Both the position numbers and the translations under genes were made by a program. Under the pieces are notes generated by a model that was not told the origin of the DNA, searched no databases, and saw only the letters and a list, made by a program, of their open reading frames with translations. Source: an uncultured Candidatus Saccharibacteria bacterium (GTDB lineage Bacteria > Patescibacteriota > Minisyncoccia > Phycocordibacterales > UBA5272). Taken from it: DNA of 64,000 nt. Numbering within the stretch: the stretch's first letter is position 1; every line of letters starts with the position of its first letter. Of this stretch, positions 14,704 through 54,943 are shown in pieces. The stretch is from positions 2,489 to 66,488 of the forward strand of contig CAYXKW010000006.1 in NCBI GenBank assembly GCA_964464695.1. The letters run 5' to 3'.

Positions 14704-16878
<2,175 letters not shown>

Positions 16879-47330: not shown

Positions 47331-47440
47331 ATATAGTATCTATCCTATCATATAGGAATTACAAAGTGTATGAGAATTACAATTGTTTATTCCTGTATTC
47401 ATTGCCTCTTGATATCTATATATAGTATGCTTCCTCTATC

Positions 47441-48028
47441 ATGAAGAAAAACATTAAGAATAAGCAGTCTGTTATTTTACAGAAAGGTGGGAAAATAAAT
47501 AGAGAGGCGGTTAAAAAAATTAGTAAAGCAGTTGCAAAGCATTCCGCAAAAAAGATTTTTATGAAAGTTGGAGGAAAGGAGATAGAAGTTAAACTTCCAG
47601 ATCATCATTTCAAGCAAGTGAAAGTAAAGCGTGGATTAGACGGTCTTGGGCTTTTTGCAGGTGAAGACATTAAGAAAGGGGAAATGATTATAGAATACAT
47701 TGGGAATATTTTAAATAAAGAAGAAGCTGCAAAGATTGCAACGAATCAATATTTATTTGAGGTAAACAAAAACAAAACAATCGACGGAACCGTAAGATGG
47801 AATATTGCGCGATACTGCAATCATGCATGTGAAGAAGCGGGGAACGCCGAAAGTGAAGTTAAAAAAGGAAGAGTCTTTATTAAAGCTATTAAGAATATTA
47901 AAGAAGGGGAAGAAATTGTGTATGATTACGGAGAAGAATTTGTTAATGAGTACATAGCAGATAAAGGTTGCAGGTGTCTTGCGAAAGAACATAGTTACAA
48001 AGCAAAGAAGACAGCTGTTGGTAATTAG
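47441..48028 (+). CDS. SET-domain protein (putative protein-lysine methyltransferase) with a Lys-rich N-terminal region
   Basis: GLGLFAGEDIKKGEMIIEYIG (GxG / N-SET), RYCNHACEEAGNAE (NHSC-like), EEIVYDYGEEF (ELxFDY-like), and a post-SET Cys pair CRCLAKEH. The N-terminal 45 aa are K-rich. Terminator at 48072-48099. Confidence 0.75.
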   Translation: MKKNIKNKQSVILQKGGKINREAVKKISKAVAKHSAKKIFMKVGGKEIEVKLPDHHFKQVKVKRGLDGLGLFAGEDIKKGEMIIEYIGNILNKEEAAKIATNQYLFEVNKNKTIDGTVRWNIARYCNHACEEAGNAESEVKKGRVFIKAIKNIKEGEEIVYDYGEEFVNEYIADKGCRCLAKEHSYKAKKTAVGN

Positions 48029-48189
48029 CTATTAGCTTGTAGCTAATACGAATTCAAATATAAATGAACATAAAAGCGGCCACGAAGTGGCCGCTTTTGT
48101 ATTAAAGCCAACAGCTAAAGGCTAACAGCTAACAGCTATTTATGCGAATACTTCGCATTTGCATAAATATAAAAAACAAAAAACAAAAG

Positions 48190-48198
48190 TTATCCACA
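48190..48198 (+). promoter_or_regulatory. Consensus DnaA box TTATCCACA
   Basis: Exact 9-mer match. Confidence 0.4.
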
Positions 48199-48303
48199 TA
48201 TTTTTGAGTAAACACTATTGTATGTAGTTATGTAAGTGAGATACTTGTATGTAAGAGAGTAATGGTCGTGGTCGCGATCAACATATTACAAGCACTCTCG
48301 GAT

Positions 48304-48312
48304 TTGTATAAT
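48304..48312 (+). promoter_or_regulatory. Extended -10 element TGTATAAT about 14 nt upstream of the H1-like ORF start (leaderless or near-leaderless mRNA)
   Basis: A TGnTATAAT match. No SD between it and ATG 48326. Confidence 0.4.
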
Positions 48313-48325
48313 AAAAATAAATTTT

Positions 48326-48433
48326 ATGGCAGCAAAAAAGAAGGCAGCTAAGAAAGCGGTAAAGAAAGTTGCAAAGAAGGCAGTGAAGAAAGTTGCTAAG
48401 AAGGCAGCTAAGAAGACTGCAAAGCGTGCGTAA
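48326..48433 (+). CDS. 35-aa Lys/Ala-rich histone H1/Hc1-like basic protein (MAAKKKAAKKAVKKVAKKAVKKVAKKAAKKTAKRA), absent from the ORF track
   Basis: Hand-translated ATG..TAA ORF of AKK repeats, like bacterial H1-like nucleoid proteins. Flanked by the extended -10 promoter and a hairpin terminator GAAGCATCA-CTCCCA-TGATGCTTC-T4 (48467-48495). Confidence 0.55.
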   Translation: MAAKKKAAKKAVKKVAKKAVKKVAKKAAKKTAKRA

Positions 48434-48582
48434 TCGCAACTTGCAAAAGTTTGTTCTTTCAGAAAAGAAGCATCACTCCCATGATGCTTCTTTTCTATTT
48501 GGTTAGGATGATATGTTTGCTTTATGTAGATATGTTCATCTAATAAAGTAATCTTGAAATTGATCGATTGCCAGTAATTTAA

Positions 48583-48591
48583 TTATCCAAA
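48583..48591 (+). promoter_or_regulatory. Near-consensus DnaA box TTATCCAAA
   Basis: 8/9 match, in the same orientation as the other two boxes. Confidence 0.3.
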
Positions 48592-48627
48592 AAAATTAGT
48601 CCTACACATTATTTAAGTATAAAATAA

Positions 48628-48636
48628 TTATCCACA
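48628..48636 (+). promoter_or_regulatory. Consensus DnaA box TTATCCACA
   Basis: Exact 9-mer match. Confidence 0.4.
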
Positions 48637-48767
48637 TAAAAACTTTACATACATATAACTTAGGTGTAGTATTCCTATCAGATGTTCATGTTGGTCGAAA
48701 AACAATGTGTGCGTCGTGCATCTGCTCCACCCAATGAGCAGTTCCATCGTCAATCCAGGAGAAATCC

Positions 48768-48929
48768 ATGAAACGTTCCATCGTCGCTCCCGCCGGCCAA
48801 AGCGCCAATTCCGCCGCCTCCGCACACGCTGGCCACAACGCCGTCAACCGCCGTGCCGCCGAAGATCGCTCCAGTCGTGGCAGTACCGTTCACGCTGGCG
48901 TCCACCTCGAAGGCACCATCGGCCGCTGA
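48768..48929 (+). CDS. SD-led 53-aa ORF inside a strongly GC-rich ~300-bp island upstream of secA; coding status uncertain
   Basis: AGGAGAAATCC-ATG gives a strong SD. The product MKRSIVAPAGQSANSAASAHAGHNAVNRRAAEDRSSRGSTVHAGVHLEGTIGR is Ala/Ser/Gly/His/Arg-rich. The region is ~60% GC, and an overlapping 111-aa Arg-rich frame (48707..49042) also stays open. Terminator CCCACC-CCAAA-GGTGGG-T6 at 48983-49005. Confidence 0.2.
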   Translation: MKRSIVAPAGQSANSAASAHAGHNAVNRRAAEDRSSRGSTVHAGVHLEGTIGR

Positions 48930-49063
48930 TACAAGGTCACGTCAACGGCTTCTTCACAGCAAGCTGTACTTTCAGCAAGAAGCCACCCCACCCCAAAGGT
49001 GGGTTTTTTATTGCTGTATCACGACTACATTCTGCATTATAAATATGATATAATCACGTAACT

Positions 49064-54475: not shown

Positions 54476-54943
54476 TTAGAGGTATGAAAGTAATGAATCG
54501 ATGTACTTAAATTCTTTTTCTCTGACAGGTGTAATCGATAAACGACTTCCTTTTTGTAATAACTTCATAGCTGATAACTCAGTGTGTAGTCTCATGTCAT
54601 TGATTGAAAGTGATTCTGAATATTTTTTAACAAAGGCTACATCCACCGAAACCCAAGAAGGGTTTTCTCTTGTAGCTTTTGCAAAATAGTAAAGACTTTT
54701 CTTATTGAACTGTGTTTCGTCAGGATAGGGATTGCTTGCAATTTTTGCTACACCAACAATTGCAGATGGTTTCCCATTCGAGTGATAAAAGAAAACAAGA
54801 TCGCCTATCTTCATCTCATTTTTCATAAAATTCCGCGCTTGGTAATTTCTGACACCGAACCATGGTGCTTGTTTGTCTCGCTGTAAGTCATCAATTGAGT
54901 ACTCTTCCTCCTCGGATTTCATTAACCAGTAGTTCATATACAA
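54476..54943 (-). CDS. EVE (PUA-like) domain protein
   Basis: NYWLMKSEEEEYSIDDL...WFGVRNYQARNFMKNEMKIGDLVFFYHSNGKPSAIVGVAKIASNPYPD matches the EVE/Thy1-like signature. Confidence 0.7.
   Translation of the reverse strand: MYMNYWLMKSEEEEYSIDDLQRDKQAPWFGVRNYQARNFMKNEMKIGDLVFFYHSNGKPSAIVGVAKIASNPYPDETQFNKKSLYYFAKATRENPSWVSVDVAFVKKYSESLSINDMRLHTELSAMKLLQKGSRLSITPVREKEFKYIDSLLSYL

Follow-up and report, generated by a model that had tools for sequence, protein, structure and literature searches.

A basic-tailed SET-domain gene and a lysine/alanine-repeat mini-gene conserved as neighbours in Paceibacteria: a candidate methyltransferase and substrate

Introduction

Hc1 of Chlamydia is a protein of approximately 125 amino acids with a folded N-terminal domain, archaeal MC1 is folded and has approximately 90 residues, ScvA of Coxiella burnetii is an Arg/Gln-rich peptide of approximately 30 residues, and BpH1 of Bordetella and AlgP of Pseudomonas carry Lys/Ala-repeat tails. 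Methylation of bacterial or archaeal nucleoid proteins by SET-domain enzymes is described in very few cases, such as Chlamydia cpnSET-Hc1 and archaeal Go1-SET-MC1-alpha. cpnSET of Chlamydia pneumoniae binds Hc1 and Hc2 and methylates Hc1 (Murata et al. 2007, summarised in PMC3980110); NUE, the orthologue in C. trachomatis, is a secreted enzyme that leaves Hc1 unmethylated (PMC3980110). An earlier note on the DNA analyzed here had cited chlamydial SET proteins in general as methylating Hc1/Hc2-type proteins, which is true of cpnSET acting on Hc1 and not of NUE. Go1-SET of Methanosarcina mazei methylates MC1-alpha at a single lysine (Manzur & Zhou 2005, summarised in PMC3980110). Bacterial SET proteins have mostly been read as host-directed effectors, among them NUE, LegAS4/RomA, BaSET and BtSET (PMC3980110).

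ScvA and Hq1 are small basic DNA-binding proteins of the Coxiella small-cell variant and accompany nucleoid condensation (PMC4766238). PAKKA repeats and non-specific nucleic-acid binding are described for mycobacterial HupB/Hlp and Ku (PMC3553676), and parcubacterial uS19 has an Ala/Lys-rich C-terminal tail (PMC9297842). Some Paceibacteria parasitise methanogenic archaea (PMC10936435). In the literature that we searched, no paper joined SET domains, or histone H1-like proteins, with CPR bacteria.

Here we describe a locus in which a SET gene is followed by a very short gene for a Lys/Ala-repeat peptide. The whole stretch of DNA that was analyzed, referred to as the window, has 64,000 nt, and coordinates throughout are window positions. 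It was compared with related Paceibacteria (CPR/Patescibacteria) loci, of which 43 are informative in being long enough to reach the mini-ORF; 44 loci were aligned, the gap between SET and mini-ORF was scored in 44 loci, and that between mini-ORF and SecA in 32. The two genes, conserved across a CPR clade that is very widespread and not pathogenic, offer a simple and directly testable candidate pair, a 195-aa enzyme and a 35-mer.

The SET gene and its product

47421..47426, + strand: -10-like box TATAGT, 14 nt 5' of the SET start codon, without a Shine-Dalgarno sequence (start-region count over 43 ORFs)
47441..48028, + strand: SET-domain lysine methyltransferase gene, 195 aa (Pfam PF00856, profile against the PDB, AF2, Foldseek)
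47441..47617, + strand: basic N-terminal extension of SET, residues 1-59, pI 10.5, 17 K/R against 4 D/E, low AF2 confidence

The earlier note had read the ORF at 47441..48028 as a SET gene with a Lys-rich N-terminal region; its coordinates are right, the motifs that it quoted are present, and the basic region is there, with a pI of 10.5. The Pfam search and structure prediction that it proposed gave a full-length match and a confident core of MLL1 type. The protein's PF00856 score is 82.2 bits, where the cut-off is 22.4 (model positions 1-105 of 105, E = 4.3e-23), and in a profile search against the PDB the SET domains of KMT2C/MLL came out best (E = 2e-19), with the GxG, RYCNHAC and YDY motifs aligning with those of KMT2C. 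The motifs G68-L-G70, R124-Y-C-N127-H128-A-C130 and Y161-D-Y163 are invariant or nearly so in 20 close and 91 diverse homologues, and G68/G70, N127-H128, C130, Y163, C177, C179 and H184 are invariant in 20 homologues.

AF2 produced a model with an overall pLDDT of 81, and of approximately 90 or more for residues 60-190, from an alignment of 91 sequences, to which a further homology search had contributed 63 more diverse SET proteins; with the 20 close homologues alone the pLDDT was 41. When this model was compared with the PDB by Foldseek, 373 matches were obtained at E<=0.001, and the top ones listed are all SET domains, headed by that of MLL1 (2w5z; probability 1.0), at 26-34% identity. The model thereby points to the SET beta-fold, which holds the pseudoknot, at the level of the fold rather than of knot threading.

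The SET domains of KMT2/MLL-SET1 enzymes are thus the nearest relatives in both sequence profile and structure, and the GxG, NH(S/A)C and YDY motifs align. In contrast to KMT2/MLL, the protein lacks partners of the WDR5/RbBP5/ASH2L type as well as pre-SET and N-SET domains, its total length being 195 residues, and its post-SET motif is C-x-C-x4-H instead of C-x-C-x4-C. Of the putative post-SET zinc site, which in the family is formed by the C-x-C-x4-C motif and the Cys of NHSC, C130, C177 and C179 are invariant, and His184, at the fourth ligand position, is invariant in the subfamily. The protein is very likely an active lysine methyltransferase (KMT) with an intact-looking catalytic site. A total of 539 homologues were found, and the best 120 of the 539 share 69-99% identity, while across hundreds of metagenomic clusters the identity is 70-99%; such strong purifying selection fits a conserved endogenous target.

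The basic tail is found in every member of the subfamily, to which it is specific, with a length of 40-70 aa and 10-28 K/R. Two conserved motifs, KQSxILKKGGK and LPDHHFK, are separated by a variable K/A/S/T linker, and the segment AVKKISKAVAKHSAKK is similar in composition to the mini-protein described below. The tail is probably disordered, and could tether the enzyme to a polyanion, either DNA or RNA. Both tail and mini-ORF are missing from three other CPR SET subfamilies (L048, a Kaiserbacteria SET, as well as L173 and L175).

Shine-Dalgarno sequences are essentially absent from the start regions of this genome, and -10-like boxes lie 3-15 nt upstream of 13 of 43 ORFs, as compared to 7.8% at internal control positions.

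The mini-ORF and its peptide

48326..48433, + strand: mini-ORF, 35 aa, Lys/Ala-repeat polycation with KK every 4 residues and a net charge of approximately +17 (composition, conservation, codon-position changes)

At 48326..48433 the earlier note had placed an unannotated ORF for an Hc1/Hc2-like mini-protein. The coordinates are right and the ORF is a conserved coding gene. Its product, MAAKKKAAKKAVKKVAKKAVKKVAKKAAKKTAKRA, contains 16 K, 12 A and one R, lacks acidic residues and has a pI of 11.7, and no other ORF of the 64-kb window is rich in Lys/Ala. The gene is not strictly unannotated, since an independent assembly calls it with 35 aa, and an NCBI record calls it with its start placed too far upstream. 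A profile search with the mini-protein gave one match, P0121, which is the mini-ORF gene in this upstream-extended form.

In 43/43 informative loci, a homologue of the mini-ORF follows SET in the same orientation, its reading frame open from the ATG through to a stop; these loci encode 35 distinct peptides. Peptide length varies from 21 to 50 aa and changes by whole codons, through gain or loss of repeats. Differences fall on third codon positions 652 times, as against 283 for first and 280 for second positions (2.3x), conserved K, A and R codons vary synonymously, and the stop alternates between TAA and TAG. With this conservation and pattern of substitution, the mini-ORF is very likely translated into a basic protein. 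In this family, KK-x-x repeats in which x is A, V, T, S or P make up the whole protein, and its two ends, MAAKKKA... and ...AKRA, are conserved; were the Met removed, the invariant N-terminus would read A-A-K-K, which recalls the A-R-T-K4 of H3.

The window mini-protein has no Pfam match at E<=1 and falls into no NCBIfam family, and when the Pfam Hc1 and HC2 models were compared with 27 family members, one reached HC2 at E 6.5 and none reached Hc1. The likeness to Hc1/Hc2 therefore stands for composition, that is, for the Lys/Ala repeat and strong positive charge, and not for a match to either Pfam model. An exhaustive phmmer search against 1.84 billion representatives returned 0 matches, which says nothing about distribution because the query is too short and too low in complexity to reach significance. 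The mini-protein probably binds nucleic acid, and it may be an abundant unstructured polycation that coats nucleic acid, akin to a free-standing H1 or histone tail.

Compared with known basic proteins, the mini-protein is much smaller than Hc1 or Hc2, being made of repeats only. ScvA/Hq1 are an earlier case of bacterial peptides that are both very small and strongly basic, although ScvA is not a Lys/Ala repeat, has no known SET link and bears no sequence relationship to the mini-protein. HupB/Hlp, Ku, BpH1, AlgP and uS19 share its AKKA/PAKKA-type low-complexity chemistry, but there the repeats are tails on folded domains, whereas the mini-protein is the repeat alone, both its termini are conserved, and its gene has a highly conserved regulatory region of its own. 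A family of 21-50 aa lies below most gene-calling and Pfam thresholds, and represents new CPR biology that standard annotation misses.

The region between the two genes

48072..48098, either strand: GC-rich bidirectional hairpin terminator after SET, AAAAGCGGCCAC-TTCG-GTGGCCGCTTTT, 12-bp stem with 7 GC pairs (alignments)
48142..48158, either strand: palindrome ATGCGAA-TAC-TTCGCAT (read from sequence and alignment)
48188..48198, + strand: invariant AGTTATCCACA with a perfect DnaA-box 9-mer, approximately 135 nt upstream of the mini-ORF ATG (44/44 aligned loci)
48199..48325, + strand: conserved non-coding leader/regulatory region of the mini-ORF (alignments, pair counts, covariance model)
48461..48496, + strand: intrinsic terminator after the mini-ORF, with a 15-bp stem and then a run of T (conserved in L001)

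The strong terminator that follows SET indicates that SET and the mini-ORF are separate transcription units. The mini-ORF ends in a hairpin terminator of its own, as the earlier note had claimed, and it is conserved in L001, the closest locus, where one T:A pair of the stem is replaced by C:G in a compensatory change and one other change gives G·U. The same note had given the mini-ORF its own extended -10: TATAAT is present at 48307-48312, but TG directly abuts it, which departs from the canonical extended -10, TGnTATAAT.

Beside the palindrome, CTTCGCATTTGCATAAA is conserved in approximately half of the loci. The AGTTATCCACA site is also found in 10 further metagenomic loci, which had however been selected by that very pattern. 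These are the true loci among the 120 matches listed in a metagenome scan with the leader pattern; the matches are mostly due to chance, and the scan is unusable as a phyletic profile. On the + strand, TTATCCACA occurs as a single copy in almost every locus of approximately 8.5 kb, and the 64-kb window holds only 3 perfect copies. By its resemblance to a DnaA box, the site may involve DnaA, and TCCACA (48193-48198), separated by 17 nt from TATTGT (48216-48221), could be a distal promoter. An oriC was considered here and rejected: a stretch of 450 bp contains two perfect TTATCCACA boxes, yet GC skew is positive window-wide without a switch, and related loci have a single box.

The leader contains ATACTT(A/G), GAGAGT (48255-48260) pairing with ACTCTC (48294-48299), a hairpin at 48264-48279, and promoter-like boxes ATTACA (48285-48290) and TATAAT, 16 nt apart. 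In the hairpin, 95.7% of cells are paired, as compared to 22-49% when the pairing is slid, AU<->GC and UA<->CG double changes are seen, and 44 cells on the + strand are G·U versus 14 unpaired. Covariation and G·U pairs in this one 5-bp hairpin are the only support for RNA structure; the outer GAGAGT/ACTCTC pairing is nearly invariant, so that covariation neither confirms nor refutes it. A thermodynamically unusual RNA was rejected (MFE z-score of -0.51), and no Rfam match was found at E<=1. The leader covariance model R1 found one copy in the window, at 100.8 bits, the next match being at 19 bits, and thus no second copy there that could point to a regulon. The upstream element of approximately 135 nt with its invariant DnaA-box motif, together with the SD-less, short-leader organisation of the genes, is new CPR biology independently of the SET question.

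Synteny and gene association

The conservation and synteny of the pair, whose examination the earlier note had proposed, extend across a clade of Paceibacteria, in the order Hsp20, ValRS, SET, mini-ORF, SecA, Mur ligase. SET and mini-ORF lie within 500 bp of each other (<=500 bp) and on the same strand in 36/44 loci, and approximately 300 bp apart in the window; in the other 8/44, insertions of 0.9-3.8 kb separate them. The rate of splitting does not differ from that between mini-ORF and SecA (10/32; Fisher p = 0.27), and in the metagenomic locus L098 leader, mini-ORF and SecA are present, but the 2.2 kb of sequence that precede them contain no SET. As the whole Hsp20-ValRS-SET-mini-SecA block is syntenic, adjacency weighs little on its own, and may simply be inherited. 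The basic-tailed SET subfamily and the mini-ORF have the same clade distribution, in 43/43 informative loci.

In L144, the ORF 3' of the mini-ORF reads, from its sequence alone, as a putative HPF/RaiA-like hibernation-factor gene.

Discussion

The identity and fold of the SET protein, a coding and conserved mini-ORF, separate promoter-like and terminator signals, a conserved leader and clade-wide synteny are what the analysis establishes for the locus. Tentatively, we regard it as a clade-specific Paceibacteria module of two separately transcribed genes, in which the SET enzyme and the mini-protein would both be bound to one nucleic acid, and the enzyme would mono-, di- or tri-methylate the mini-protein at its lysines, and perhaps also those of the SET tail itself. 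Methylation would tune charge, hydration or binding, and expression of the mini-protein would be controlled through the upstream region of approximately 135 nt, with its invariant DnaA-box-like site and hairpin on the + strand. Methyl transfer from SET to mini-protein is what we infer here, and that the mini-protein is the physiological substrate of its neighbour is a possible but somewhat doubtful hypothesis.

Like cpnSET and Hc1/Hc2, the locus combines a small bacterial SET enzyme with a Lys/Ala-rich protein, which condenses DNA in Chlamydia, and the endogenous chromatin substrate follows the logic proposed here. It differs in that the enzyme has its own basic tail, in that the organism, a CPR bacterium, lives freely or as an episymbiont and not as a pathogen inside cells, and in that the pair is known from genes alone. 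Go1-SET is similarly a minimal prokaryotic SET enzyme, with an abundant endogenous DNA-associated substrate; that system is archaeal, MC1 is folded and not a repeat peptide, and no conserved gene adjacency is claimed there.

It is also possible, though we would not call it probable, that the two genes are inherited neighbours without a functional link, the mini-protein being an independent nucleoid- or ribosome-associated polycation and SET methylating another endogenous target, such as a ribosomal protein or translation factor, or only itself. Yeast Rkm SET proteins have a ribosomal protein or translation factor as target. Separate transcription units speak for this reading and against the pairing (terminator, approximately 300 bp and a separate promoter region, hence no operon), as do the wider syntenic block, insertions that split SET from mini-ORF as often as mini-ORF from SecA, and the L098 mini-ORF without adjacent SET. 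The mini-protein also lacks a sequence-family link to Hc1/Hc2, and stand-alone bacterial SET proteins are very common without a Lys/Ala mini-ORF neighbour (1,961 matches), the contexts of L173 and L175 being different. The pairing is favoured instead by the clade-specific co-occurrence of tailed SET and mini-ORF, the compositional likeness of the SET tail to the mini-protein, the short distance between the genes in most loci and, by analogy, the precedents of SET enzymes acting on prokaryotic chromatin proteins, cpnSET-Hc1 and Go1-SET-MC1-alpha (PMC3980110). The Ala/Lys-rich tails of parcubacterial uS19 (PMC9297842) count towards unlinked genes, and would allow the ribosome to be the polyanion, or else what SET methylates. 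Indeed, the mini-protein could be an RNA- or ribosome-binding peptide instead of a DNA or nucleoid protein, that is, an extra lineage-specific ribosomal protein or rRNA counter-ion like bS22, bL37 or bTHX, which fits either answer on SET; we consider this somewhat unlikely. The uS19 additions, the putative HPF/RaiA-like ORF of L144, and a strong promoter-like signal with the very short leader that is usual for highly expressed genes in this genome, are in its favour, but a length of 21-50 aa set by repeat number is unusual for a protein with a defined place in the ribosome, while non-specific polycations typically vary in this way, and no ribosomal-protein model was matched in Pfam or NCBIfam.

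Effectors usually evolve fast, and the SET protein is unusually conserved across many environments, has a hydrophilic, basic N-terminus with neither signal peptide nor hydrophobic stretch, and is fixed in a housekeeping block rather than in a secretion or variable island. It is thus quite improbable that it is exported to a host to methylate chromatin proteins there (archaeal histones, MC1, Alba or eukaryotic histones), with the mini-protein unrelated, even though most characterised bacterial SET proteins are host-directed (NUE, LegAS4/RomA, BaSET, BtSET; PMC3980110), some Paceibacteria parasitise methanogens (PMC10936435), the catalytic core most resembles eukaryotic H3K4 enzymes, and the only NCBIfam match, which reaches 41.9 bits where the cut-off is 550, is to the SET portion of AnkI/LegAS4, a Legionella effector. 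Host histones had been the alternative target named in the earlier note, should the organism be an episymbiont. Very improbable indeed is an incidental, untranslated 35-aa ORF, the conserved thing being an RNA or DNA element, or a membrane-active or antimicrobial cationic peptide. A conserved non-coding element does lie upstream, and a few family members resemble cationic antimicrobial peptides, though very weakly (E 0.075 for Cupiennin and E 3.9 for a frog AMP). However, ATG, frame and stop are kept in 43/43 complete copies despite whole-codon length changes, and third-position excess, synonymous variation and the two stop codons all argue for translation; the peptide has no L, I, F, W or signal peptide, a mean hydrophobicity of -0.41, and a periodicity that peaks at 90 degrees per residue, whereas an amphipathic alpha-helix would peak at 100 degrees.

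Returning to methylation of the mini-protein by SET, a fuller version, which we consider unlikely, would be a minimal chromatin-mark system of Paceibacteria, in which a Lys/Ala peptide with an A-A-K-K N-terminus would coat the genome, a DNA-tethered MLL-like SET enzyme would methylate it, and its synthesis would be tied to replication initiation via the DnaA box and structured leader. If true, this would be a writer-substrate pair for bacterial chromatin lysine methylation in one of the largest uncultured radiations, and would include a previously undescribed cis-regulatory element. Should the mini-protein be a major nucleoid or ribosome counter-ion, it would bear on the packing and regulation of nucleic acids in ultra-small cells.

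Sequence downstream of the mini-ORF

The GC-rich stretch at 48690-49003 was considered as a structured ncRNA linked to the mini-ORF and rejected, with no Rfam match at E<=1, a fold z-score of -1.67 and no homologue in 47 related loci. GC-rich stretches of other loci are unrelated cargo ORFs of approximately 150-225 aa, without Pfam or Rfam match. In the window, the stretch is part of an insertion of approximately 527 bp that is missing from the closest locus, L001.

The SET protein

The reading frame at 47441..48028 (+) encodes a protein of 195 residues that matched the Pfam SET family (PF00856) over the entire model, with 82.2 bits against a cut-off of 22.4 (E 4.3e-23). The earlier note had called it a SET enzyme and had proposed a Pfam search and a structure prediction as checks; both agree with it. 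The AF2 prediction reached a pLDDT of 41 with 20 close homologues and of 81 with 91 diverse sequences, the latter with values >90 over residues 60-190. When the fold was compared to the PDB with Foldseek, the matches were SET domains, MLL1 being the top one (probability 1.0). A profile of 20 homologues likewise matched the SET domains of KMT2C, KMT2D, MLL1 and SET1 best (E 2e-19), then NSD, EZH2 and G9a, and aligned the GxG, NH(S/A)C and YDY motifs with those of PDB SET domains. Residues G68, G70, N127, H128, C130, Y163, C177 and C179 are invariant in the family. In the post-SET motif, C177-x-C179-x4-H184, the canonical Cys is replaced by a His that is invariant within the subfamily. The protein is a SET family member that displays all features testable in silico, and its putative zinc site is a variant.

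A total of 539 SET homologues were matched, the best 120 of 539 at 69-99% identity; their source MAGs bear the labels Candidatus Paceibacterota, Nomurabacteria or Parcubacteria (CPR/Patescibacteria). Small stand-alone bacterial SET proteins are abundant (1,961 matches to a Kaiserbacteria-type query), and a bacterial SET by itself is unsurprising. Residues 1-59, where AF2 confidence is low, are basic (17 K/R versus 4 D/E, pI 10.5). Every member of this subfamily carries such a tail, with 10-28 K/R, in which a variable K/A/S/T linker connects the conserved motifs KQSxILKKG(G/S)K and LPDHHFKxVKVKRG; the Kaiserbacteria SET of locus L048 has no basic N-terminal tail. We note that KQSxILKKGGK (SET residues 8-18, window 47441-47500, and homologues) recalls the KGGK of the histone H4 tail; that it could be an automethylation or pseudo-substrate site is pure speculation.

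A conserved gene for a Lys/Ala-repeat peptide

Both reading frames described in the earlier note were found, within the following arrangement.

47441..48028, +, SET protein
48072-48098, bidirectional, strong SET terminator
48188-48325, conserved element, ~135 nt upstream of the mini-ORF
48188-48198, invariant AGTTATCCACA, with a perfect DnaA-box 9-mer inside
48264-48279, 5-bp hairpin
48285-48312, +, -35/-10 pair (ATTACA, 16 nt, TATAAT)
48326..48433, +, mini-ORF, 35 aa, MAAKKKAAKKAVKKVAKKAVKKVAKKAAKKTAKRA
48461-48496, +, mini-ORF terminator, 15-bp hairpin and T run

The mini-protein contains 16 K, 1 R, 12 A, 4 V and no acidic residues (pI 11.7), with KK pairs at an exact four-residue spacing, and its gene is the sole Lys/Ala-rich ORF within the 64-kb window. 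Scanning one genome per species yielded 47 Paceibacteria loci with this SET subfamily. A Lys/Ala-repeat ORF lies downstream of SET, on the same strand, in 43/43 loci extending past SET, which bears out the conservation and synteny that the earlier note had proposed to check. The contigs of L014, L015, L019 and L043, which lack the mini-ORF, end at or just past SET, and in L019 the upstream box is still present.

All 43 complete copies (including that of the window and excluding L006, cut by its contig end) keep one frame from ATG to stop, with lengths of 21-50 aa. Among 41 copies compared (L020 and L040 excluded) there are 35 distinct peptides, with conserved termini, MAAKKKA(A/V)KK... and ...KK(T/S)AKRA, and a variable number of middle repeats. 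Differences between equal-length copies fall mostly at third codon positions (652, versus 283 at first and 280 at second); codons for conserved K, A and R residues show synonymous variation, and both TAA and TAG serve as stop. In-frame upstream extensions differ in frame between loci, indicating that the true start is the ATG of MAAKKK. The 35-aa gene was also called in an independent Logan assembly whose sequence is the same over 4.3 kb (100% identity). Taken together, these sequence comparisons indicate that the mini-ORF is a real, conserved gene. No member of the family matched Pfam or NCBIfam, Hc1 and HC2 included, and this family of 21-50-aa repeat proteins looks undescribed.

Expression signals and the upstream element

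The hairpin terminator described in the earlier note is present, and is kept in the closest locus, L001, where a compensatory change has turned T:A into C:G. The extended -10 of the earlier note is not canonical, in that TG directly abuts TATAAT and does not give TGnTATAAT. The note's 'near-leaderless' description of the mini-ORF fits a genome-wide habit: among the 43 ORF starts examined over the whole window, Shine-Dalgarno sequences are essentially absent (only AGGAG before the 48768 ORF and GGGAGG before 38767 were noticed), and -10-like boxes precede the start codon by 3-15 nt in 13/43 ORFs versus 7.8% of internal control positions. This pattern suggests frequent use of leaderless or very-short-leader mRNAs in the organism. 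SET and SecA share the mini-ORF's arrangement.

Alignment of the 175 nt upstream of the mini-ORF ATG from 44 loci revealed a non-coding region conserved beyond many proteins. The element occurs in L001-L047, L061, L072, L093, L098-L100, L106, L121, L144 and L148. AGTTATCCACA is followed by ~20 variable AT-rich nt, (C)TATTGT, ATACTT(A/G), GAGAGT, the hairpin, an A-rich stretch with ATTACAAGC, ACTCTC, TTTG(T/C)ATAAT, 11-13 nt and the ATG. On the + strand, TTATCCACA is single in almost every 8.5-kb locus, where it is the element's box, and the whole window holds only three perfect copies. An oriC at this site was rejected, as GC skew does not switch here.

In the hairpin, AU/GC changes occur in 8 sequences and UA/CG changes in 3; of the cells in the seven pairs that were counted, 44 are G·U on the + strand versus 14 unpaired. 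The structure tested, hairpin plus outer GAGAGT/ACTCTC, has 95.7% of cells paired versus 22-49% with slid partners; the outer pairing is nearly invariant and therefore uninformative. Because G·U is tolerated on one strand, the pattern argues for an RNA-level structure in a + strand transcript, which would imply a promoter upstream of the hairpin. A distal candidate, which we infer from sequence, consists of TCCACA (inside the box), 17 nt and TATTGT. The loci that diverge most (L041-L045, L017, L040) retain the leader and lack the proximal TATAAT. Leader thermodynamics are ordinary (z -0.51), no Rfam family matched, and a covariance model found no second copy within the window. Two candidate models may be considered. 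In one, transcription from a proximal promoter would yield a near-leaderless mRNA, and the upstream sites would act at the DNA level; in the other, a distal promoter overlapping the DnaA box would yield a ~95-nt structured leader. This DnaA-box-bearing leader looks undescribed.

Nearby, a palindrome, ATGCGAA-TAC-TTCGCAT, overlaps a CTTCGCATTTGCATAAA motif (48142-48170) that precedes the DnaA-box-like site by ~25 nt and is kept in roughly half of related loci. Directly past the SET stop codon, GCTA/ACAGCTAA repeats (gctattagcttgtagctaat; aacagctaaaggctaacagctaacagcta) flank the SET terminator hairpin on both sides (48030-48140).

An enzyme and its substrate?

PMC3980110 reports methylation of Hc1 by cpnSET and of MC1-alpha by Go1-SET, and no methylation of Hc1 by NUE. 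The earlier note had ascribed methylation of Hc1/Hc2-type proteins to chlamydial SET proteins in general; this holds for cpnSET on Hc1 and, given NUE, is too broad. A SET enzyme with a prokaryotic chromatin-protein substrate is a known theme, of which these two pairs are precedents, whereas here the substrate is a candidate. The likeness to Hc1/Hc2 stands for Lys/Ala richness, as with the H1-like proteins or tails of Hc2, BpH1, HupB and the Ku PAKKA repeats, but the mini-protein falls outside the Hc1 and HC2 profiles. Among very small basic peptides that bind DNA, Coxiella ScvA (PMC4766238) would be its nearest functional analogue. In the literature searched, no paper joins SET domains or H1-like proteins with CPR, Patescibacteria or Parcubacteria.

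The peptide may be the physiological substrate of this SET enzyme, as the earlier note had proposed, though we lean against it; the central functional claim draws on synteny and analogy. The basic-tailed subfamily and the mini-ORF share their clade distribution, and the CPR SET subfamilies of L048, L173 and L175 have neither tail nor nearby Lys/Ala ORF. The tail segment AVKKISKAVAKHSAKK is close to the mini-protein in composition, and the only other Ala/Lys-rich segment in the window is one short stretch in a 724-residue frame at 16015. An endogenous target would suit an enzyme so highly conserved.

Adjacency can, however, be inherited, since the whole Hsp20-to-SecA block is syntenic. SET and mini-ORF are separate transcription units, with the bidirectional terminator and then the ~135-nt regulatory region between them, and cargo splits them in 8/44 loci versus 10/32 for mini-ORF and SecA (Fisher p = 0.27). 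In L098, from a metagenomic leader-pattern scan with 10 true loci among the matches listed, leader and mini-ORF lie directly upstream of SecA with no SET within 2.2 kb upstream; what stands there, as we read the sequence, is a putative D-Ala-D-Ala-ligase-like gene and a putative tRNA. The polyanion bound by the mini-protein and the SET target could also both be ribosomal, Ala/Lys-rich tails being found on ribosomal protein uS19 in Parcubacteria (PMC9297842). The earlier observation is confirmed and extended, and its interpretation partly supported. The peptide and its leader are both new and robust as features of a major uncultured clade, and the enzyme-substrate hypothesis is cheap to test.

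Gene neighbourhood and insertions

The local order is Hsp20(-), ValRS(-), SET(+), mini-ORF(+), SecA(+), Mur ligase(+). SET and mini-ORF are ≤500 bp apart in 36/44 loci, and the eight splitting cargoes are unrelated and span 0.9-3.8 kb. The interval from SET to SecA is a hot spot of insertion, where different genomes have unrelated, higher-GC cargo ORFs of ~150-225 aa before or after the mini-ORF (L007 4881-5460, L010 5061-5600, L011 5361-6190, L017 4931-5560, L030/L031, L036 4551-5190, L046 7111-7610, L047 5251-5580). These ORFs matched neither Pfam nor Rfam, and DNA similarity between them is weak and confined to some pairs (L007-L017, L007-L046, L010-L017).

In the window, a ~527-bp insertion relative to L001 follows the mini-ORF terminator and precedes the SecA promoter. 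Its body has 54-68% GC versus 38% for the genome; nothing in Rfam, Pfam, plasmids or related loci matched it, and an independent assembly, L176, shows no difference in this region.

~48505-49035, insertion
48583, TTATCCAAA, in the AT-rich head
48628, second perfect TTATCCACA, in the head
48644-48672, promoter-like TTTACA-17-TAGTAT
48768..48929, 53-aa ORF, preceded by AGGAG
48987-49003, terminator

A few genes downstream, 54476-54943(-) encodes an EVE-domain (PUA-like) protein (Pfam E 9e-55). In L144, a short metagenomic contig, leader and mini-ORF precede not SecA but a 118-aa ORF (contig positions 217-294 and 425-781), which we read from its sequence as a putative ribosome hibernation factor (HPF/RaiA-like) gene.
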